From Candidatus Zambryskiibacteriota bacterium (GTDB lineage: Bacteria > Patescibacteriota > Minisyncoccia > Phycocordibacterales > DATDWN01), in contig PPGI01000010.1 of assembly GCA_003173855.1 (NCBI GenBank), positions 62,304 to 126,303 on the forward strand: 64,000 nucleotides of DNA. The letters are read 5' to 3'. The notes under the pieces are model-generated. The model was not told the origin of the DNA. It worked only from the letters and a program-made list of their open reading frames with translations, and searched no databases. How positions within the stretch are numbered: position 1 is the stretch's first letter; each line of letters begins with the position of its first letter. A program made the translations under genes and the position numbers. Below, in pieces: positions 6,087-57,946 of this stretch.

Positions 6087-7373
6087 ATGAAATTGAAGAA
6101 AGATTGGCTTTTGGTTATTTCTGTCTCAACCCTTTTAATTATTTCTGGTATTTATTTGCATTTTCATGCGCCAAATATAAATCCAAAATATCAAACTGCT
6201 GCAGAACGTGATAAATATGTCAGATTTGATATGGAAGTTTATGATGAAATTGCTAAAGTATATTGGCAAAAATCTAAAGACTCTGATTTAGCAAATCTTT
6301 TCATGCTCTCAGTAAATAAAGCTGCAAATACAAATTTAAGTCTCTCCACTTCGACTAGAGCTGGAACTGCAGAATTGCTTTCAAAAATATTTTCCGAAGC
6401 AACTTCAACAGAGTCAAAAAAGCAACTAGCCATAAACACAGTAATTATCGCACTTTACAATATTGTTCCAGTCGGGCGTGACCAACTACTCTCGCAGAAA
6501 CAAGAAACAGAGCTTCGCCAAAACGTTTCGAATATTAATCCAAGTAAAGATCTCTATGGTGATCTTGGTTTGGCAAAGGGTGCTGATATTAATGAAGTGG
6601 ACCAAGCATATAAGCAAAAAACGAGTGAATTAAAAAATGCAACAACATCTGAGGCTAAAGCTGAACTCGAGAAAGTGAAATATTCTCATTCGGTTCTAGC
6701 TGATCGAGATTCAAAATCCTTTTATGACGAAGCAAAGATTGAACCTACTCTTGGCAAAAAAATAATTGGCAGCACACTTTATTTAGATTTAAGTAAAATT
6801 TCCCCAACAACTTTAATTGAACTTGCTCGTGCAGTGGACAATGCCTCGACAACCAAGGGACTTAATTCTTTGATTTTGGATCTTCGTGGAAATATCGGCG
6901 GATCGTTAGATTTCCTGCCTAACTTTTTTGGACTTTTTGTTGGAAAAGATCAGTACGCTTTTGATTTTTACCAACAAGGGAATTATATTCCAGAACGAAC
7001 TGTTCAGTCAAAATTTCCTGAACTTGATCGATTTAAAGAAATTGTTATTTTGACTGACAATATGACCCAATCAACAGCTGAGTTGACTACAGCAACATTC
7101 AAAAAATTTCACATGGCAACAATTGTTGGTCAAACCACTCGAGGATGGGGAACAATTGAAAATACTTATCCAATAAATACTGAAATTGATCCAACGGAAA
7201 AATATTCACTACTTTTGGTAAATAGTATTACTCTTCGCGAAGATAATCAGCCTATTGAAGGACGCGGAGTAGATCCTGATGTAAATATTAGAAATCCAAA
7301 TTGGAAAAATGAACTTTCTAAGTTTATTAAGTCTCAAAGTTTAATTGAGGCAGTTAAGAGTCAATTTAAATAG
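6087..7373 (+). CDS. Membrane-anchored S41-family peptidase with an N-terminal J-like domain lacking HPD
   Basis: ILDLRGNIGGSLD and TDNMTQSTAE...FKKF (Ser/Lys dyad region) typical of tail-specific proteases. N-terminal TM helix. DLYGDLGL...AYKQK...VLADRDSKSFYDE resembles a J domain without an HPD loop. Confidence 0.55.
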   Translation: MKLKKDWLLVISVSTLLIISGIYLHFHAPNINPKYQTAAERDKYVRFDMEVYDEIAKVYWQKSKDSDLANLFMLSVNKAANTNLSLSTSTRAGTAELLSKIFSEATSTESKKQLAINTVIIALYNIVPVGRDQLLSQKQETELRQNVSNINPSKDLYGDLGLAKGADINEVDQAYKQKTSELKNATTSEAKAELEKVKYSHSVLADRDSKSFYDEAKIEPTLGKKIIGSTLYLDLSKISPTTLIELARAVDNASTTKGLNSLILDLRGNIGGSLDFLPNFFGLFVGKDQYAFDFYQQGNYIPERTVQSKFPELDRFKEIVILTDNMTQSTAELTTATFKKFHMATIVGQTTRGWGTIENTYPINTEIDPTEKYSLLLVNSITLREDNQPIEGRGVDPDVNIRNPNWKNELSKFIKSQSLIEAVKSQFK

Positions 7374-7382
7374 GCAATTTTT

Positions 7383-7406
7383 AATAGGAAAGAGCCACCT
7401 TGCGAG
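7383..7406. terminator. Bidirectional terminator hairpin (AGAGCCAC ttgcga GTGGCTCT)
   Basis: Perfect 8-bp stem. A T-rich tract follows on the minus strand and the S41 gene lies just upstream on plus. Confidence 0.5.
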
Positions 7407-7450
7407 TGGCTCTTGTGGCGGCGGGATGGTCGTGCGGGGTTCGTGGCAGG

Positions 7451-7636
7451 TTAATGTCGAATGCCGATTTCCGGAGTGAGATTCCTGTGCCTTCGAATCC
7501 TGTTTGGATTTTCAACTGGAGCTTGATTCCAGTTGTGAAAGGCGATTGCGCCTTGAAGTCGGCTCACAGAAGCACGAAATTCGTACCTCTTTCGGCGAAT
7601 TCTCCTACGTCTTTCACGCAGGTGCTCAAATTTCAT
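7451..7636 (-). CDS. Small Arg-rich ORF (60 aa, MKFEHLRERRRRIRRKRYEF...) in a GC-rich 260-bp element. Could instead be an ncRNA.
   Basis: Near-consensus SD AGAGGAGAAATCT before ATG (rc of 7634-7636). Candidate promoter TTGACA-N15-GATAAT upstream on minus. A 3' UTR runs into the 7383-7406 terminator. Codon usage is foreign to the host. Confidence 0.25.
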   Translation of the reverse strand: MKFEHLRERRRRIRRKRYEFRASVSRLQGAIAFHNWNQAPVENPNRIRRHRNLTPEIGIRH

Positions 7637-7728
7637 AGATTTCTCCTCTGGCAATAAATTATCATATTAATTGATTTATGTCAAATATTATTTTTTATTT
7701 TGTTATCCACAGAATTTCACTTGCGGAG

Positions 7729-7744
7729 GTGAACTAGAGTTCAC
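7729..7744. promoter_or_regulatory. LexA (SOS) box, Cheo-type palindrome GTGAAC-TAGA-GTTCAC, directly abutting a TATAAT -10
   Basis: Perfect GAAC-N4-GTTC inverted repeat immediately 5' of TATAAT (7745-7750). It sits upstream of the operon that contains lexA. Confidence 0.6.
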
Positions 7745-7777
7745 TATAATACTTTTATTATAAAACTATGAAAAAAT

Positions 7778-7978
7778 ATGAGCAAATATAATTTAGAAAA
7801 ATCATTGAGAAAAGAGTTAAGCCAATTAAACGATATTATTGATGAAAAAATATTGCGAGGTTATTCGTATGCAAGAGAAGCCAAACGTCACAAATTTATT
7901 CTTTCAAGAATTCAGGAGATTAAAAGAAAATCAAAGTCAGGAACGAATTGGTTATCTCGGACTTTAAGTATTGTTTAA
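7778..7978 (+). CDS. Small hypothetical protein, first gene of the lexA operon
   Basis: 66-aa charged, helical ORF between the LexA box and lexA. Confidence 0.4.
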   Translation: MSKYNLEKSLRKELSQLNDIIDEKILRGYSYAREAKRHKFILSRIQEIKRKSKSGTNWLSRTLSIV

Positions 7979-7990
7979 CTAATTAATATT

Positions 7991-8572
7991 ATGTCAGAAG
8001 AAAATTATTCAAGTTACAAAACTAAAATCCTCACTTTTTATCGTAATAATAGGCGTATGCCTGGTTATAAAGAGATCATGAAACTTGTTGGTTTCAAATC
8101 TAAAAATGCAGTTTATAAACTTATAAATAAATTGGTAAATGATGGTGTTGTTGAAAAGGACTCACTTGGAAGACTGACACCTATGAAAATTTTTGGTGAA
8201 GTTCCGCTTCTCGGAATTGTAGAAGCGGGAATTCCAACGACTACTGAAGAGGACACCTCTGACACCATGAGTATTGATGAGTATATGCTTGGAGATAAAA
8301 AGGGTGCAGTATATTTACTTGAAGTGAAGGGTGACTCAATGATTGATGAAGGAATTCGCGAAGGCGATCTTGTTCTAGCTGAAAGAAATAGCGAGCCAAA
8401 AGATGGCGACATTGTTATCGCAGAAGTAGATGGAGGATGGACAATGAAATATTTCAAGAAAAAAGGAAATAATATTTACCTTAAAGCTGCAAATAAAAAT
8501 TATTCACCAATTTATCCGCAGTACGATCTTCGTGTAGCTGCAATAGTAAAAGGAGTAATACGTAAATACTAA
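7991..8572 (+). CDS. lexA: LexA repressor (S24 peptidase)
   Basis: N-terminal winged HTH. Ala-Gly cleavage region (VEAGIP), Ser (GDSM) and Lys (KYFKK) of the S24 autoprotease. Confidence 0.9.
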   Translation: MSEENYSSYKTKILTFYRNNRRMPGYKEIMKLVGFKSKNAVYKLINKLVNDGVVEKDSLGRLTPMKIFGEVPLLGIVEAGIPTTTEEDTSDTMSIDEYMLGDKKGAVYLLEVKGDSMIDEGIREGDLVLAERNSEPKDGDIVIAEVDGGWTMKYFKKKGNNIYLKAANKNYSPIYPQYDLRVAAIVKGVIRKY

Positions 8573-10041: not shown

Positions 10042-10065
10042 CTGTGGATAAGCCATTTGACATAT

Positions 10066-25260: not shown

Positions 25261-26055
25261 ATGAGTCATTTTGTAGCAATTATTCTCGGAGCTGTTGAAG
25301 GATTAACAGAGTTTATTCCTATTTCTTCGTCAGGGCATTTGATAGTTGTTCGTGAACTTTTGCATGTTAATGATTCAAACGGACTGGCATTTGATGCCAT
25401 AATTCAGCTTGCAGCAACTCTGGCTTTAGTTTTTTACTTTTGGAAAGACATCTGGCATTTGATTGTCACTTTTTTTAAATTTATTTTTGGCAGGTCCATT
25501 GAACAGAGAGATCTTACGTTTTTGGTTGCAATAATTATTGGAACTATTCCGGCTGTAATTCTAGGCTTATTTTTAGAAAAAACACTGGAGACGCTTTTTA
25601 GAAATATTCATTTAGTAGCTTTTGCTTTGCTCGCAGGAAGTGCACTGATGTGGTATGCCCAAAGAGTGGCAAAACATAATAAAGGATTGCATGTAAAAAA
25701 TGCATTCATAATTGGACTATATCAATGTCTTGCATTAATTCCTGGGATCTCACGATCAGGGGCAACTATTTCTGGAGGATTAATTGAAGGTCTTGATCAA
25801 GAACAAGCAGTCAGATTTTCATTTCTTTTATCAGTTCCAATTCTAATAGGTTCTGGTTTAAAGAAATTATTTGAAGTTAGGCATTTAATATTAGGAAATA
25901 CATTTGGATCTTCATTGTTTTTAGGCTCAATCACTGCCTTTATTGTCGGATTATTATCCATTAGATTTCTTATTAAATATCTTAAAACAAACAATCTAAA
26001 TATCTTCATATACTACAGAATAGCCTTATTTTTAGCCATATTTTTACTATTTTAG
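25261..26055 (+). CDS. uppP: Undecaprenyl-diphosphatase
   Basis: VEGLTEFIPISSSGHL and SRSGATISGGL signature motifs. Confidence 0.85.
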   Translation: MSHFVAIILGAVEGLTEFIPISSSGHLIVVRELLHVNDSNGLAFDAIIQLAATLALVFYFWKDIWHLIVTFFKFIFGRSIEQRDLTFLVAIIIGTIPAVILGLFLEKTLETLFRNIHLVAFALLAGSALMWYAQRVAKHNKGLHVKNAFIIGLYQCLALIPGISRSGATISGGLIEGLDQEQAVRFSFLLSVPILIGSGLKKLFEVRHLILGNTFGSSLFLGSITAFIVGLLSIRFLIKYLKTNNLNIFIYYRIALFLAIFLLF

Positions 26056-26073
26056 TAATTAAATTAAATCTGC

Positions 26074-26102
26074 TTGACATAGTTTAAGTAGTATGTTAAT
26101 CT
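26074..26102 (+). promoter_or_regulatory. Promoter TGCTTGACA-N17-TAATCTTA (copy 1)
   Basis: Consensus -35, 17-bp spacer, TAATCT -10. Extended identity with copy 2 (AAATnTGCTTGAC...TAATCTTA). Confidence 0.5.
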
Positions 26103-26161
26103 TATTTCCAGAAACATGGGGCAATTTCGCCTCAGAGTTCTCAAAAGGTAGGGCAAAAGTC

Positions 26162-26794
26162 ATGGCCAAGGAAATGCTGACTCTCGACCAGGTCACCGAA
26201 AACGTCGGAGGCCTCATCAAGACCATGAAGTCCGTCAAGGGCTTCCGGATCGGCGAGCCGATCACAGGCTTCGTCAAGAAGATGGCCGATGCCATCGAGG
26301 CCGGCAAGCAGGCCGACGCCATCGATGTCGGTGAGGAGCTCGTCTCCGTGGGTCGCTCGATCCTCGGCAAGTTCATCAGGAACTCAGTCGTGGATCAGAA
26401 GAGCGAGGCGGACGAGATGCTCCTCCGCCAGGCACACTTCAACAAGATCCTGTCGCGGGTCGTCGCCGAGGGTTACGACGAAGACATCGTCGCTCGTCTC
26501 GAGAAGCTTCGCAAGGAACTCGAGGAGGCGGTGAACGTCGAGCGCAACGGAACCTTCGAAGTTCGCATCGGCGCCTACAACGCCATGTCTCAGGCAGCGG
26601 AAGATGCTGACAAGGAACAGGAGAAGCGTGACAGAGTTCGTCGTGTTCAGAGGCAAGAAGCCGCTCGCGCTGCGGCGTCGAACGGCAAGAAGGACGCTCT
26701 TCCGCAGGTTCCGACGAACAAGGGCACCGAACAGCGCGCCACCCTGCTCGCCGCTCGCAAGCAGCAAGCCGACGCCCTGAAGGCACTCCTCTAA
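26162..26794 (+). CDS. Hypothetical alpha-helical Ala/Glu/Lys/Arg-rich protein (211 aa) with foreign high-GC codon usage
   Basis: ATG 26162 after AAGGTAGGG. GC3-biased codons (AAG, GTC, GCC, CGC) unlike the host. Terminator downstream. Confidence 0.5.
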   Translation: MAKEMLTLDQVTENVGGLIKTMKSVKGFRIGEPITGFVKKMADAIEAGKQADAIDVGEELVSVGRSILGKFIRNSVVDQKSEADEMLLRQAHFNKILSRVVAEGYDEDIVARLEKLRKELEEAVNVERNGTFEVRIGAYNAMSQAAEDADKEQEKRDRVRRVQRQEAARAAASNGKKDALPQVPTNKGTEQRATLLAARKQQADALKALL

Positions 26795-26819
26795 TCCGTC
26801 GGTCGACGACGTGTTCCAC

Positions 26820-26860
26820 AAGTCCGGGAAGGACAGCAAACTTCCCGGACTTTTCTATTG
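26820..26860 (+). terminator. Rho-independent terminator (AGTCCGGGAAG...CTTCCCGGACT TTTTCTATTG)
   Basis: 11-bp stem plus U-tract. Confidence 0.5.
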
Positions 26861-26871
26861 TTTAAATGTGC

Positions 26872-26900
26872 TTGACGAAAAGTGAAGATCATGATAATCT
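26872..26900 (+). promoter_or_regulatory. Promoter TGCTTGACG-N17-TAATCTTA (copy 2)
   Basis: Same architecture and extended flanks as copy 1. Confidence 0.5.
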
Positions 26901-26974
26901 TACCTTGTTGATACATTAGTTCATTCAGATCACCGTTCGCCTTGAGGCGAACACAAGCGAAGGGAGCGCAGACA

Positions 26975-27172
26975 ATGAGGACACACTCGCCGCCGATGGC
27001 GGCCCACACCTTCGGGGGAGCGCAGAGCGCTCAGCCCCAGCATTGCATGGTTTCCAGCACGATCATCGCGATTCACGAGCAGCTCGGCGCGCGCCGCGGC
27101 CTGACCGCCGGCGACGGCGTCTCGGAGGGGACATGCTTCGCTTATACCAGTCCGGCAACTCGAGCCCGTTGA
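26975..27172 (+). CDS. GC-rich small ORF (65 aa). The whole ~350-nt transcript is highly structured, so it may instead be an ncRNA.
   Basis: SD AAGGGAG before ATG 26975. Numerous local GC hairpins. Flanked by the promoter and the 27205 terminator. Confidence 0.25.
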   Translation: MRTHSPPMAAHTFGGAQSAQPQHCMVSSTIIAIHEQLGARRGLTAGDGVSEGTCFAYTSPATRAR

Positions 27173-27204
27173 AGGGCATCCTCTGAAGAGGACTTGCGAC
27201 GGCC

Positions 27205-27245
27205 GTTGAACGGCAAACCCGGGGGAGATTTCTCTCCCGGGTGTT
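27205..27245 (+). terminator. Rho-independent terminator (CCCGGGGGAGA ttt TCTCTCCCGGG TGTTTTTATT)
   Basis: Perfect 11-bp stem plus U-tract. Marks the end of the GC-rich island. Confidence 0.55.
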
Positions 27246-27400
27246 TTTATTATTTTAATTTTTAATTACCAATTAACTAAGATTTTCAGATTTGGATGCA
27301 GTTCTAGGCGGACAAGAAAAATGCGAGGAGCCTTACAACTGTAAGGTGACGAAGATTTTTTGAAGTCCAACAACGAAATGCGCCAAATGTGAAAATCGAG

Positions 27401-54062: not shown

Positions 54063-54159
54063 ATTTTCCTTTAAATCTCTTATACACCATAACTTTTTCG
54101 TCACTGGAATATTTTTCTGCTGAAAATTTCCTCGCACTCGCCTCTACACGGGCTCCGTG

Positions 54160-54196
54160 ATGAAAAGAAAGCGCTGGTGCCTGTAGCACCAGCGCT
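54160..54196 (-). terminator. Terminator for the 54270 gene (AGCGCTGGTGC ctgta GCACCAGCGCT)
   Basis: Perfect 11-bp stem with TTCTTTTCAT on the minus strand. Confidence 0.5.
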
Positions 54197-54269
54197 CGTG
54201 TGAGTTTGTCGAACATCTGTCGACTAAACCCACGAAAGAACATCCCAAAAAGAACTTCTAGCGAACTAA

Positions 54270-55499
54270 CTACCACTTCTTGTCTCCGCCCTTGTCTCCG
54301 CCGTGATCTCCACCTTTGTCACCACCGTGATCGGGTGGTGGAGCGGGAGTTGGGTTTGGAGGCTGGACCTGTGGTGTGGCCTTTGCCTCATTGTTATTGT
54401 TGTTCGAATTCGAATTCTTTGACACAGCGTCTGAACTCGAATCTGCTCCGGCGGCTGCGCCGGCTGAGACTTTGCCGACATTTCCGCCATCTGCTTTTGA
54501 TTCGCCTCCAGTTGCCGTAACGTTTCCGTTTTTGGCACTTGAGTTTGAATTTGACTCTCCACCATTGCCGACACCGTTTGCGGTAACAGCTCCATTGGTG
54601 GCGTTGGCTTGTCCGCCGTTTGCCTGTGAGCTCGAACTTCCGTTAGCGCTCACATTACCGTTACTCGCACTCGCCTGTCCGCCGTTTGCTTGTCCACCAT
54701 TTGCTGTGTTGTTTACAACAACTGATGGTCCGCTCGATCCAGATCCGGTAGAACCCGAACTCGAGCTTGAAGTCGATGACGAACTTGAACTGGTTGCAGA
54801 CGCGCTGCCACCAGCTCCGCCTTGACCGCCTGTTGCATTTGCCGACGCTCCGGTCTGCGTTTGATTTACGTTGACAACTGGCGCCGGAATTTTCCCGATC
54901 GCTGTGGTCATCATTGACCCGATTTTCTGGGTCTGACCGGCGAGCGTTTTTCGAACAGCATCGACAGATGCTGTGTTGGCATTCACCGCATCGTAAATCT
55001 TGCCAGTGTTGTGAGCAGTGACAAGATTTGCGTATGCAGAGATTCCACCTTCGACTGTAAGAGCAAACAACCACTTGTTCGCTGTGCTTGTTGAGCCAGC
55101 GATTCGCTCTTGAGCACGTCGGCTTCGATCAGCGATTTCGTTACCACGCTTCAACTCTTCAACCACTGCAGTTGAATCGAAATTCACTTGCGGTGGTGGC
55201 GTTGCTCTCTGCAGAAGCAGAGCGAGTGCATCTCCAGTAAACGCTGGTTGCACTGGTGCCTGCGGATTTTCCACGTGGTTCTCGATCACGATCACAGGTG
55301 CGGCCGGGTGTTCCGCGGCAATGACTTCTGCTTTGGCACGCGCTCGACCACTTGTGACCGGTTTCTTTGCTTGTGTGCAGTCAACCTGAACAGTGATCTT
55401 TGATCCGTCCGGACAGGTGACTGTTGTCGGAGTGAGCTGAGCTTCCGCAAGATTTGAACTTGCGAATGCGAGCACGATAACGAGCCAGAGTTTCCTCAT
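54270..55499 (-). CDS. Secreted protein with a long Gly/Ser/Asn/Ala low-complexity region and a C-terminal HGGDKGGD repeat
   Basis: Signal peptide MRKLWLVIVLAFASSNLAEA. GC near 50%. Confidence 0.5.
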   Translation of the reverse strand: MRKLWLVIVLAFASSNLAEAQLTPTTVTCPDGSKITVQVDCTQAKKPVTSGRARAKAEVIAAEHPAAPVIVIENHVENPQAPVQPAFTGDALALLLQRATPPPQVNFDSTAVVEELKRGNEIADRSRRAQERIAGSTSTANKWLFALTVEGGISAYANLVTAHNTGKIYDAVNANTASVDAVRKTLAGQTQKIGSMMTTAIGKIPAPVVNVNQTQTGASANATGGQGGAGGSASATSSSSSSTSSSSSGSTGSGSSGPSVVVNNTANGGQANGGQASASNGNVSANGSSSSQANGGQANATNGAVTANGVGNGGESNSNSSAKNGNVTATGGESKADGGNVGKVSAGAAAGADSSSDAVSKNSNSNNNNNEAKATPQVQPPNPTPAPPPDHGGDKGGDHGGDKGGDKKW

Positions 55500-55510
55500 A
55501 GTTTCCTCTG

Positions 55511-56836
55511 CTATTGGACTAGCCCTAGAAGGGCAGCTGTTTGTCTTTGCTCCTTCTCAATTTTGTGGCGGATAAATCCACTCAAAACTGGAAGAGTTCC
55601 TTCGACTACTCCACTTACACCCCCGGTTGAGATTCCCAGTGCAACTGGAACACCGTAGGTTAAAGTTCCAAAGAGTAGTTTAGAGCCGAACGATTGTTGA
55701 CTCGGGTAAGTTGCGAGGAGTTTTCCATAACGCTTTTTTGATACGCTAGGAATTTTTTCCTCTTTGACTTTGGTTGCGTGATCTCGAAGGTCATTACTTC
55801 CGATTTCTGCAAAACGTTCTCCTCCGTGGTCAAAGACCACAGAAGAAGATTCTTGCACCGGAAGATCACGTGTCAGAACAACCTTGATTGCGTAGTTTCC
55901 ATCAGCGGTGTTCTCGATGATGGTAACTGTTTCTTTCCGATGCCAATTTCCATTCTCGTCTTTTGAAACGAGAAGTAGCGCCGGATGAGGTCCTTCTTTT
56001 ACGTCACGAAATTCTTTTCCACTAATGCGAATTTCGTAAACGCCCTTCTTTATAATTTTCAGTGAAGTTTTAGTTTCCGAAGCTATCACTCCACTACCAT
56101 CTTCGGATTTTGGATCCGGAGTCCTTTCCACTTCAGCACGAACATCATTCGTTCTGAAGGAGACCGAAACTGATCTTCCAAACGTTCCTGAGACGTACTC
56201 GGGAGCATTTGGTGTTTCCTCTACTGTCGTACCAGATTCAGGTGCCTGGGAAGTAACTTGGACAGTAGACTTCTCTGGCGAAACCTTTCGGGGTTTGCTT
56301 TGCACTTTACGTGCTACCTGAATTTTTTCTGGGTGCGGCAGATTGAACAAATCGCATGGAATCACAAGAGTCCAACCCACTTCGATGTGGTTTGGATTCC
56401 GGATCTCTACGATCCGTGATCCCACTTGCCTTGAAATAATATGGTAAGCGGAGAGCTCACCATAATAATCAAGAGCAATTTGTCCAAGCGTATCACCTTT
56501 GACCACTTCTCGTTCCAAGTTGCTGCAAGCATCTGGAGTAAGAGGTGTATCGGTGCTCTTCTTTGATGCTCCGGCTCTGCGGGCTTCAAGTTCTGCAAGA
56601 GCGGGGGCATCAATCTTTCTCTGTTGGGCTTTTCCTAATTCAAGTCCACCACCAAAGCCCAGCGCAAGAATTATTGCAGCAAGAACTGTTGCTGCAAGCG
56701 CTGAACCCAAAATGGTCTGCTTGATTCGTTCCCAACGGAGCCTTTCTCGGATCCTTGCCCATCTGTTTTCTACTACGATTACAGAGGGATTCTTACGGAC
56801 ACTCATTTGTCCACTCCTTCCCGAAAGTTTCGGCAA
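55511..56836 (-). CDS. LysM-domain membrane protein
   Basis: Cytoplasmic N-terminus, one TM helix, LysM (VKGDTLGQIALDYYG...GWTLVIP), and a C-terminal Gly-rich hydrophobic segment. Confidence 0.55.
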   Translation of the reverse strand: MPKLSGRSGQMSVRKNPSVIVVENRWARIRERLRWERIKQTILGSALAATVLAAIILALGFGGGLELGKAQQRKIDAPALAELEARRAGASKKSTDTPLTPDACSNLEREVVKGDTLGQIALDYYGELSAYHIISRQVGSRIVEIRNPNHIEVGWTLVIPCDLFNLPHPEKIQVARKVQSKPRKVSPEKSTVQVTSQAPESGTTVEETPNAPEYVSGTFGRSVSVSFRTNDVRAEVERTPDPKSEDGSGVIASETKTSLKIIKKGVYEIRISGKEFRDVKEGPHPALLLVSKDENGNWHRKETVTIIENTADGNYAIKVVLTRDLPVQESSSVVFDHGGERFAEIGSNDLRDHATKVKEEKIPSVSKKRYGKLLATYPSQQSFGSKLLFGTLTYGVPVALGISTGGVSGVVEGTLPVLSGFIRHKIEKEQRQTAALLGLVQ

Positions 56837-56873
56837 GAGCCTCTATCATCAACTTGTTTCCACTTAATAAAAC

Positions 56874-56892
56874 TGTCCCGGTTCCGGCAACA
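56874..56892. repeat. 19-bp direct repeat TGTCCCGGTTCCGGCAACA (copy 1)
   Basis: Exact 19/19 match with copy 2, 90 bp away, in the promoter region of the LysM gene. Confidence 0.6.
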
Positions 56893-56963
56893 GCTCATCT
56901 CATGGTCATTTTTGAAGATTTTGGTTTCCCGCACTTTCGAGATTCTTTTCTTTGTTTGTGTGA

Positions 56964-56982
56964 TGTCCCGGTTCCGGCAACA
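56964..56982. repeat. 19-bp direct repeat TGTCCCGGTTCCGGCAACA (copy 2)
   Basis: Exact 19/19 match with copy 1. Confidence 0.6.
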
Positions 56983-57066
56983 AAACACTATTTAAAGAAA
57001 GGAATGTACGAAAGAGTTTCCGCTTTCAAACGTTGATGTCGTGATTGTGGTTGTTAGGTCGCTTTC

Positions 57067-57777
57067 TTAGGCTGTCGGCGAGATTGCTCGAGCTGTTCTC
57101 TGCGATCTCGGTTTTCCAACCGTTCCGAGAACGATCTGCTCAGTCATATTCAAACGTGCTGACCAAGCAACTTCCACGTCTTCCTCGAGATTTTGGTTTT
57201 CGCTTGCTTTAAACAGTACTCGAGGATCACCATTTTTGATGAAGAAATCTGCGTTAGCGAACTTTCCTTTACCTGGATCTGCATTTAGAACAAACCTACA
57301 GTACACAGGTTTTTGCCCCTGAGCATAGTAGAAAGCTTTGATTTGCTCAAGTTCGGGATTTGTTATCCGAACTTTTTTTGTGTTCATGTAGATCAGTACT
57401 CCGAGAATAGTAGTAAGTATCAGAGTAATGATACTGCTGAACACAACTACATAATTTCTCGTTGACTGACTTTCTTCCCTGACCAGTTTTTCGATTCTGG
57501 TCAATCGATCGTTAGTTTTTTTCTCGAGAGCGACTTGTGAAGTCGAGAGCTGTTTTGCTCTAGTCTCACTTTTTTTGTCGATTTCATGAACCTCACTCGT
57601 CAGATCTTTTTTGACGGTGTTCAGATTTCGACGAGCTTCGGCCCGAACCGAATTGAGTTGCCGTACTGTGACGGCTTCGTCAGCTTCCGGTCTTCGAGCG
57701 TGCTGTGCCTCGAGCCTCGTATTTATTGCGAGGCAGGCAAGAATCGTGATGGTCGCGATCGTCAGTCTGCTTCGCAT
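57067..57777 (-). CDS. Hypothetical coiled-coil protein with a signal peptide and an internal TM helix
   Basis: SD GGAGAG before ATG. Coiled-coil region, then VVVFSSIITLILTTILGVLIY TM. GC near 50%. Confidence 0.5.
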   Translation of the reverse strand: MRSRLTIATITILACLAINTRLEAQHARRPEADEAVTVRQLNSVRAEARRNLNTVKKDLTSEVHEIDKKSETRAKQLSTSQVALEKKTNDRLTRIEKLVREESQSTRNYVVVFSSIITLILTTILGVLIYMNTKKVRITNPELEQIKAFYYAQGQKPVYCRFVLNADPGKGKFANADFFIKNGDPRVLFKASENQNLEEDVEVAWSARLNMTEQIVLGTVGKPRSQRTARAISPTA

Positions 57778-57946
57778 TTTCTCTCCAATTCAAAATGACG
57801 GCTAAAGGCTAGGCCTTGCCGTGTTTGTCAAAGAAACCCTAAAAATTATCACATGAGTCAAATGAATGAATCATGAATAATTTTAATCTATATTTATTAT
57901 TTTTTTAGGTTTGTCCACTCCAAAAAAACCAAAATTTATGGCTTAA

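Follow-up and report, generated by a model that had tools for sequence, protein, structure and literature searches.

The window considered here, that is, the whole stretch of 64,000 nucleotides (nt) of contig PPGI01000010.1 that was analysed, comes from a Parcubacteria/Patescibacteria genome of the candidate phyla radiation (CPR) and has a GC content of about 37%. At one place in it a unit of about 300 bp on the minus strand, in the following called the element, lies between an S41 peptidase/DnaJ-like gene (6087–7373, plus strand), to which it is convergent, and an operon consisting of a small open reading frame (ORF) and the genes for LexA, MPG and MGMT (7778 onward, plus strand; assigned by Pfam), from which it is divergent. 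The closest relatives of the S41 peptidase are found in metagenome-assembled genomes of Candidatus Taylorbacteria, those of LexA in Candidatus Zambryskibacteria and other Parcubacteria. The element is real and intact, looks transcriptionally autonomous, and is known from one genome only.

What sets the element apart at first sight is its base composition: the GC content of 7383–7660 is 49.6%, while the intergenic DNA flanking the element has 22%. A preliminary description of the locus, made from the sequence alone, had put the value at about 55%, which is too high for the element as a whole and is reached only in the peak windows of 120–150 nt (53–56%); the ORF has 47% and the 3′ 68 nt have 63%. 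Within the 64-kb window the element is single-copy. An independent Logan contig (SRR490130) is identical to the window over 7140–8510, and because the identity is 100% across the locus, the junctions of the GC-rich block with its AT-rich flanks are genuine and not the product of a chimeric assembly; the only other contig with the locus being 100% identical, no strain variation was seen.

Signals of the element

Along the minus strand the element presents a promoter, a Shine–Dalgarno (SD) sequence, an ATG, an ORF, a C-rich tract and a hairpin, in this order and with canonical spacing; all the features that had been listed for it earlier (promoter, SD, Arg-rich ORF, 3′ tract, hairpin) are indeed in the sequence, with small corrections. 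The promoter has a −35 hexamer, TTGACA (7679–7684), of perfect consensus, which is part of a motif match at 7658–7684, and a −10 region, TGATAATTT (7656–7664), that can be read in two equally good ways, either as GATAAT (7658–7663) after a spacer of 15 nt or as a TG-extended TAATTT (7656–7661) after a spacer of 17 nt. The first of these readings is the TTGACA-N15-GATAAT promoter proposed before; it is present, but just outside the coordinate (7660) at which the element had been taken to end. Transcription would likely start near 7650, about 7 nt past the −10 box. The SD-like hexamer GAGGAG (7643–7648) stands 6 nt (AAATCT) before the ATG (7634–7636) and was rightly called near-consensus, the energy of its duplex with the anti-SD being −8.8 kcal/mol; an SD of such strength precedes 1.2% of the other (background) ATGs and none of 45 gene starts.

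The ORF itself, MKFEHLRERRRRIRRKRYEFRASVSRLQGAIAFHNWNQAPVENPNRIRRHRNLTPEIGIRH, extends from 7451 to 7636 including the stop codon (TAA, 7451–7453), fills about 70% of the predicted transcript, and specifies a peptide that starts with MKFEHLRERRRRIRRKRYEF; it is called ORF61 here because its length is 61 amino acids and not 60, as previously counted. Its Arg-rich character stands: 15 Arg (25%), 2 Lys and 4 His are set against 5 Glu and no Asp, which makes the peptide hydrophilic and basic. Past the stop codon comes a C-rich, G-poor tract of 36 nt (7415–7450) with 21 C, 6 G and 2 U (58% C), which is unpaired in the minimum free energy (MFE) structure, and then the terminator-like region (7383–7414), a hairpin (stem 7389–7414, 10 bp, 5-nt loop, −15.2 kcal/mol) followed by UUUCCUAUU. 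Of the GC-rich 3′ untranslated region with a "perfect terminator" that had been described, the C-rich tract and the perfect stem (9–10 bp) hold; the U-tract (UUUCCUAUU) is weak, and the epithet was an overstatement. The hairpin is located 10–40 nt beyond the stop codon of the convergent S41 gene, and since no U-tract follows it on the plus strand, its orientation fits use on the minus strand. In a generic promoter/terminator scan, the promoter of the element and its terminator both went unflagged.

The promoter is of a type that is rare in the window. With at most one mismatch, the motif TTGAC-N15-TGATAAT matches five times in 64 kb, where 0.75 matches are expected; the only exact copies are the promoter of the element and a site at 26872–26898, and a copy with one mismatch is found at 26074–26100. 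All three of these intergenic copies stand ahead of GC-rich orphan units. Promoter motif and SD exceed chance; by a rough estimate, promoter, SD, correct spacing, an ATG no more than 15 nt from the predicted start and a frame of 61 codons would come together by chance in about 1 of 1,000 cases.

Absence from relatives and search for homologs

Comparison with related loci indicates that the element is a local peculiarity. Thirty loci around relatives of the S41 peptidase (≤64% identity) contain neither LexA nor the element. Around relatives of LexA (about 80% identity) the order small ORF–LexA–MPG...rpoB is kept and the element is missing from the same locus; there, a divergent gene for a class-II aminoacyl-tRNA synthetase, or the terminator of another gene, is found about 150–330 nt upstream of the small ORF and LexA. 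In an alignment made by eye, conservation with these relatives starts at TTATCCACAG (7703) and takes in the −35 box, the LexA box (GGTGAAC-N4-GTTCAC) and the TATAAT of the LexA operon; what lies to the left of 7703, namely the element with its promoter, occurs in this genome alone. The conserved part is the promoter of the operon beginning with the small ORF of 66 codons, sORF66 (7703–7750, plus strand), which is outside the cassette, has the same layout in Zambryskibacteria-type relatives, and consists of −35 TTGCGG (7721–7726), the LexA box GAACTAGAGTTC (GAAC-N4-GTTC; 7731–7742) and TATAAT (7745–7750). It had been described as lying back-to-back with the promoter of the element at a distance of about 90 bp, and so it does: the two are divergent and their −10 boxes are about 90 bp apart.

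The element had been taken for an import, and the comparison agrees with this view; given an SD in an SD-poor genome, non-host codons and the absence from relatives, the unit was probably acquired horizontally. A look for terminal inverted repeats and a target-site duplication brought to light nothing convincing, the flanks containing only AT-rich repeats of 8–9 nt that are of chance type; together with its single-copy state in the window and its absence from the other loci this led to the rejection of a remnant of a miniature inverted-repeat transposable element or insertion sequence. A remnant of the synthetase gene found in relatives was likewise rejected, and nothing marks the element as what is left of any longer gene, as similarity was detected neither to the synthetase of the relatives nor in six frames. 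One relative (L034, about 2250–2295) has its sORF–LexA operon interrupted in the 5′ leader by a GC-rich insert, short and with two hairpins (TCCGCCTCAACGGCGGATCCGCCGAGGAGGCGGA), from which it appears that GC-rich insertions around the promoter of this operon recur in the group.

Searches with the DNA were fruitless. In an Rfam cmscan of 6500–8500 no family matched even at E ≤ 1, and the whole window gave none at the gathering score; no tRNA or tmRNA was reported by ARAGORN; phages, plasmids and viral contigs, searched both as DNA and in translation, contained nothing that matched the element; nhmmer found no other copy in the related loci, and a covariance model built from the core fold of the single sequence matched the element itself and nothing else in 208 kb of related DNA. 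A six-frame query, for which all stop-to-stop segments were concatenated, yielded nothing at E ≤ 1.

Shine–Dalgarno sequences in the host genome

The genes of the host essentially do not use SDs. A GGAG, GAGG or AGGA was found between −20 and −1 at only 2 of 40 gene starts of the window, the start regions of host genes have SD scores no better than those of internal controls, even if any in-frame start within the first 40 codons is admitted, and the regions upstream of the starts consist of 75% A+T. The leading ORFs of other GC-rich islands of the window, on the other hand, have SD-like sites of −7.5 and −6.5 kcal/mol. For the SD of the element this leaves two readings, a signal of foreign style or just one of the two strands of a helix (see below); SD-like sites on the ORFs of other islands, in conjunction with the promoter motif ahead of GC-rich orphan units, favor the former.

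A second GC-rich island, larger than the element (26040–27250, plus strand; up to 71% GC), comprises two tandem units, the promoters of which are near-duplicates, TTAAATnTGCTTGAC...ATGnTAATCTTA, at 26074–26100 and 26872–26898. The first unit contains an orphan ORF, ORF233 (26093 or, from an internal ATG, 26162 to 26794), which with a GC content of 0.79 at third codon positions (GC3) is clearly coding-like, and has a hairpin at its end (26820–26852). The second (26905–27250) has about 340 nt with 62–70% GC, an SD-led ORF of 65 codons (26975–27172) and a textbook terminator (27216–27250). Neither unit matches Rfam, Pfam, PHROG, PADLOC or NCBIfam, and the composition of the element resembles neither that of host genes nor that of the other GC islands.

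Predicted RNA structure

All fold results given here are predictions from a single sequence, without covariation support. In the MFE structure, five perfect or near-perfect hairpins, all within ORF61 on the minus strand (H1, 7604–7622; H2, 7568–7590; H3, 7539–7554; H4, 7513–7535; H5, 7497–7509), are enclosed by a long-range helix, in which the SD region (7651–7634) is paired with 7486–7471; GAGGAG is thus also part of the 5′ strand of this closing helix, and the 3′ strand (AGG..UCUC.CUC.GG, 7471–7486, minus strand) falls within codons 51–56. H1 and H2 are strand-specific, with −9.3 and −11.3 kcal/mol on the minus strand versus −3.2 and −2.7 kcal/mol on the plus strand. When prefixes of the transcript are folded, the SD is about 60% unpaired up to approximately nt 170 and about 99% paired once nt 171–181 have been transcribed, its probability of being unpaired dropping from about 0.6 to about 0.01 as the 3′ strand of the closing helix is completed; in the ensemble of the full-length RNA the SD is 79% paired, and it is paired in the MFE structure as well. 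If ORF61 is translated, the closing helix would, in this model, leave mostly nascent transcripts open to initiation; without translation, the helix would be the closing stem of a compact RNA domain ahead of a C-rich single strand.

The z-score of the fold is −3.2 on the minus strand (none of 200 shuffles is as good) and −1.0 to −1.4 on the plus strand. Calibrated on 256 tiles of 280 nt from the same window, a value of −3.2 is not above chance, as 7% of ordinary tiles reach it and compositionally mixed tiles do far better, and the z-score was rejected as proof of an RNA gene for this reason. Within 7473–7533 (minus strand) the 9-mer AC(A/U)GGA(A/U)UC occurs three times with in-frame spacings of 30 and 15 nt, and all six GGA triplets of the transcript have (A/U)UC within 0–3 nt after them (6 versus 0.84 expected, a post hoc count); these repeats form stem arms in the predicted fold. 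A small RNA (sRNA) sequestering CsrA/Rsm was rejected: six GGA compare with 4.8 expected (P = 0.32), all of them are base-paired in the ensemble, and no CsrA gene was found in the window or the related loci.

Interpretation of the element

The favored reading, which is tentative and was given a probability of 0.45, is a lineage-specific, probably horizontally acquired and transcriptionally autonomous small-gene cassette that has the layout of a phage "moron" and codes for a basic, helical peptide. According to this proposal, the strong sigma-70-type promoter, with its perfect −35 and TG-extended −10 box, would give rise to a transcript of some 265 nt beginning at about 7650, on which the strong SD and the ATG some 14 nt downstream of the start would drive translation of the 61-residue peptide. 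The N-terminal 38 or so residues of the peptide would form one long Arg-rich helix, as in peptides of the nucleic-acid-binding type. The SD would be accessible while the RNA is being made and become paired once codons 51–56 have been transcribed, so that new ribosomes would largely be kept off the finished mRNA and output be limited, and the C-rich tract with the hairpin would stop transcription short of the S41 gene, to which the RNA would otherwise become antisense. What argues most strongly for translation of ORF61 is the canonical layout of these putative signals.

Several findings have to be held against a peptide-encoding cassette. In 18% of shuffles of the stretch an ORF of 61 codons or more turns up, so that the length of ORF61 is not above chance, and an ORF of 85 codons overlaps it in exact antisense register. 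As had been suspected, its codon usage is non-host, which supports import: the log-likelihood ratio per codon is −0.107 (host genes, 0.255 ± 0.071), and all of the 390 in-frame pieces of window genes that have the same length score higher, so that this signal does exceed chance. ORF61 is accordingly unlike the other genes of the window in codon usage as well as in start context and does not pass for a host-type protein-coding gene. Under neither host nor GC-island codon models is its frame the top one of six, and with such models it ranges about 3 standard deviations below true in-frame coding pieces. The GC contents of its three codon positions (0.53/0.45/0.42) show the third to be the lowest, without the GC3 excess of the GC-rich and clearly coding ORF233 (0.67/0.37/0.79). 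The gene calls of the source assembly comprise the S41 gene, a small ORF of 66 amino acids, LexA and ORF233, and no ORF in any frame over the element. No match to the peptide was found in Pfam, NCBIfam, PHROGs, PADLOC or PDB sequences, nor a homolog among 5.8 billion protein clusters; with HMMER, only two of 1.84 billion representatives matched, both long repetitive proteins, the scores of which are sums of 7–13 stretches of 5–7 bits each and hence repeat-amplified artifacts. With neither a homolog nor a profile match, ORF61 does not belong to a recognizable conserved small-protein family. AlphaFold predicts one helix for residues 4–38 (predicted local distance difference test 85–97) and a disordered tail (predicted template modeling score 0.46), which is compatible with the proposal but not diagnostic, as AlphaFold gives most Arg-rich sequences a single confident helix, and carries little weight. 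Lastly, if the ribosomes of the host ignore SDs, that of the element may be irrelevant in this host.

It is possible, though doubtful, that the element instead specifies a structured sRNA of about 265 nt in which the ORF is incidental, with a multi-hairpin core (7471–7651), a closing helix whose 5′ strand is merely SD-like, a C-rich tail and a terminator; the single-stranded tail could serve for pairing or for the binding of a protein. GC-IGR searches look for structured RNAs by the signature of a GC-rich island within an intergenic region (IGR) that is long and AT-rich (PMC6429828, PMC8632094), and with 0.50–0.63 GC versus 0.37 in the window the element displays it; by the standards of that pipeline, however, where candidates having at most three representatives are filed as "Unnamed IGR: insufficient evidence" (PMC8632094), the element would be just that, since it has one representative, the second contig being identical, whereas multiple representatives with covarying pairs are called for. 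The folding result is similarly two-sided: the minus strand (−3.2) folds better than the plus strand (about −1) and H1 and H2 are stable on the minus strand only, owing to G–U pairs, but with 7% of tiles its equal the z-score is ordinary for this genome, and neither nhmmer nor the covariance model provided a second copy in which covariation could be sought. That pairing takes up the SD-like string almost completely in the core fold, that no codon model detects a coding signal and no gene was called, and that GAGGAG need not signal translation where host genes do without SDs, all fit an sRNA; the absence of an Rfam family at E ≤ 1 and of a tRNA or tmRNA speaks against it, and the combination of SD, spacing, ATG and 61-codon frame, if incidental, would have to be the chance event of about 1 in 1,000 estimated above. 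A further, improbable scenario unites the element with the two likewise-promoted units at 26.07–27.25 kb as an undescribed CPR-specific set of structured or dual-function RNAs, or of SD-led micro-proteins, which could act, e.g., on the anti-SD of the ribosome or on nucleic acids of the host organism; in that case the strong SD would not be left over from import but would have a function, as an oddity of this genome.

That the element is non-functional foreign DNA, a decaying fragment at a synteny breakpoint in which the promoter and SD strings are left over from rearrangement or mobile-element traffic, is unlikely. It does sit exactly where the gene order departs from that of the relatives (the synthetase there; PIF1–S41 and the element here), it is an orphan in every search, and its composition is unlike that of host genes and other islands; yet the frame is uninterrupted, the −35 box and the hairpin stems are perfect, all of which decay would erode, and no resemblance to the synthetase or, in six frames, to any protein, and no convincing inverted repeats or target-site duplication, point to such a past. 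Least credit is given to a link with the SOS response, which would make the element either part of the LexA regulon, co-regulated by way of the common intergenic region, as the preliminary description considered, or a type I toxin-like mRNA of the tisB/hok kind that is inert by 5′–3′ pairing. The mRNAs of the type I toxins hok and tisB are kept inert by long-range helices, and a long-range helix is predicted to occlude the SD in the full-length RNA of the element, which in addition is divergent from a conserved LexA-box promoter (about 90 bp from −10 to −10). The sole GAAC-N4-GTTC nearby (7731–7742), however, falls between the −35 and −10 boxes of the plus-strand promoter, at 46 bp from the −35 box of the element, whose own promoter has none, and the relatives keep that LexA-box promoter without the element; co-regulation is therefore unsupported, and for a coupling of the two divergent promoters, though conceivable, there is no indication. 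A type I toxin–antitoxin system was rejected as well, as the peptide with its 25% Arg is highly basic and hydrophilic and not a hydrophobic membrane toxin, no antisense promoter on the plus strand was detected within the unit, and no complementary direct repeat links the element to the neighboring transcript.

CPR/Patescibacteria have small genomes, about whose regulatory RNAs and micro-proteins hardly anything is known. A strongly promoted, SD-led basic peptide or a structured RNA next to the SOS repressor would, if real, offer a rare opportunity to study regulation specific to a lineage, or the recent import of genes into a reduced genome, and three GC-rich orphan units with strong SD-like sites and one type of promoter in an SD-poor genome raise the question whether its ribosomes still respond to an SD. 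Practical importance is limited because the element comes from a single genome.

The neighboring LexA operon and a further GC-elevated region

About 10 bp upstream of the −35 box of the LexA operon, at 7703–7711 (plus strand), there is a perfect match to the DnaA-box consensus, TTATCCACA; its position upstream of the small ORF is kept in Zambryskibacteria-type relatives (L031/L033/L034/L037/L038) while the flanks vary, which suggests a DnaA input into the operon of the SOS repressor. A second perfect DnaA box is present at 10043–10051 (minus strand). The ORF directly before LexA (7778–7978, plus strand; equivalents in L031–L038) has 63–67 amino acids and the motif ...NLEK.L..EL..LN.IID.KI.RG.SYAREA.RHK.IL..., shares the LexA-box promoter with LexA, and is without family assignment; it appears to be a conserved, uncharacterized partner of LexA across these Parcubacteria. 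Its start (7762–7784, plus strand; AAAACTATGAAAAAATATGAGCA) resembles the approximately 20 nt around the start of ORF61 (7623–7642, minus strand; AAATCTATGAAATTTGAGCA), a similarity that is marginal (P = 0.015, post hoc); as the two ORFs are on opposite strands, their RNAs would share this sequence and not pair through it.

Elsewhere in the window, at about 54100–57800 (minus strand), GC-elevated (45–57%) orphan ORFs of 409, 441 and 236 amino acids are found, of which the one of 441 has a LysM domain and a weak PHROG match to an endolysin/transglycosylase; this block may be another imported region.

Comparison with known systems

Morons, known from lambdoid phages, are autonomous promoter–gene–terminator cassettes of deviant base composition inserted between conserved genes. 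The element shares with them a single small ORF, a predicted sigma-70-type promoter and hairpin terminator of its own, a deviant GC content, a place between genes whose arrangement is different in relatives, and presence in one genome but absence from its relatives; it differs in its chromosomal housekeeping/SOS neighborhood, where no prophage genes, which belong to the classical definition, are nearby, and in having no match to PHROGs or to phage or viral DNA. SgrS/SgrT, RNAIII/delta-haemolysin and SR1/SR1P are dual-function sRNAs, which also encode a small peptide. Like these, the element would give rise to a stand-alone transcript of predicted structure with a short SD-led ORF, a single-stranded segment and a terminator; in contrast to them, no target complementarity, chaperone or homolog was identified for it, and its ORF takes up about 70% of the transcript.

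Arginine-rich motifs (ARMs) mediate RNA binding in peptides such as the N proteins of phages lambda and P22 and Tat and Rev of HIV. The N-terminal RERRRRIRRKR of ORF61, within the predicted helix, is reminiscent of these, and H1 (7 bp, GAAAG pentaloop) superficially resembles boxB; sequence homology is absent, however, as are a nut-site or antitermination context and an operon downstream, and the resemblance is one of composition only. Type I toxin mRNAs beside SOS genes are exemplified by tisB/istR-1 and hok. Here the likeness consists in a small ORF divergent from a LexA-controlled promoter and in a predicted 5′–3′ pairing that hides the SD, the difference in a peptide devoid of a membrane helix, the absence of an antisense RNA gene, and a promoter without a LexA box. 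With the ncRNA candidates from GC-IGR searches (PMC6429828, PMC8632094, PMC11109978) the element has in common a GC content far above that of its AT-rich genome and stable hairpins predicted for one strand; acceptance of such candidates demands multiple representatives and covariation, and the element has one representative. It is, in sum, an orphan small-gene or sRNA cassette, which is a known kind of system and not a new one.

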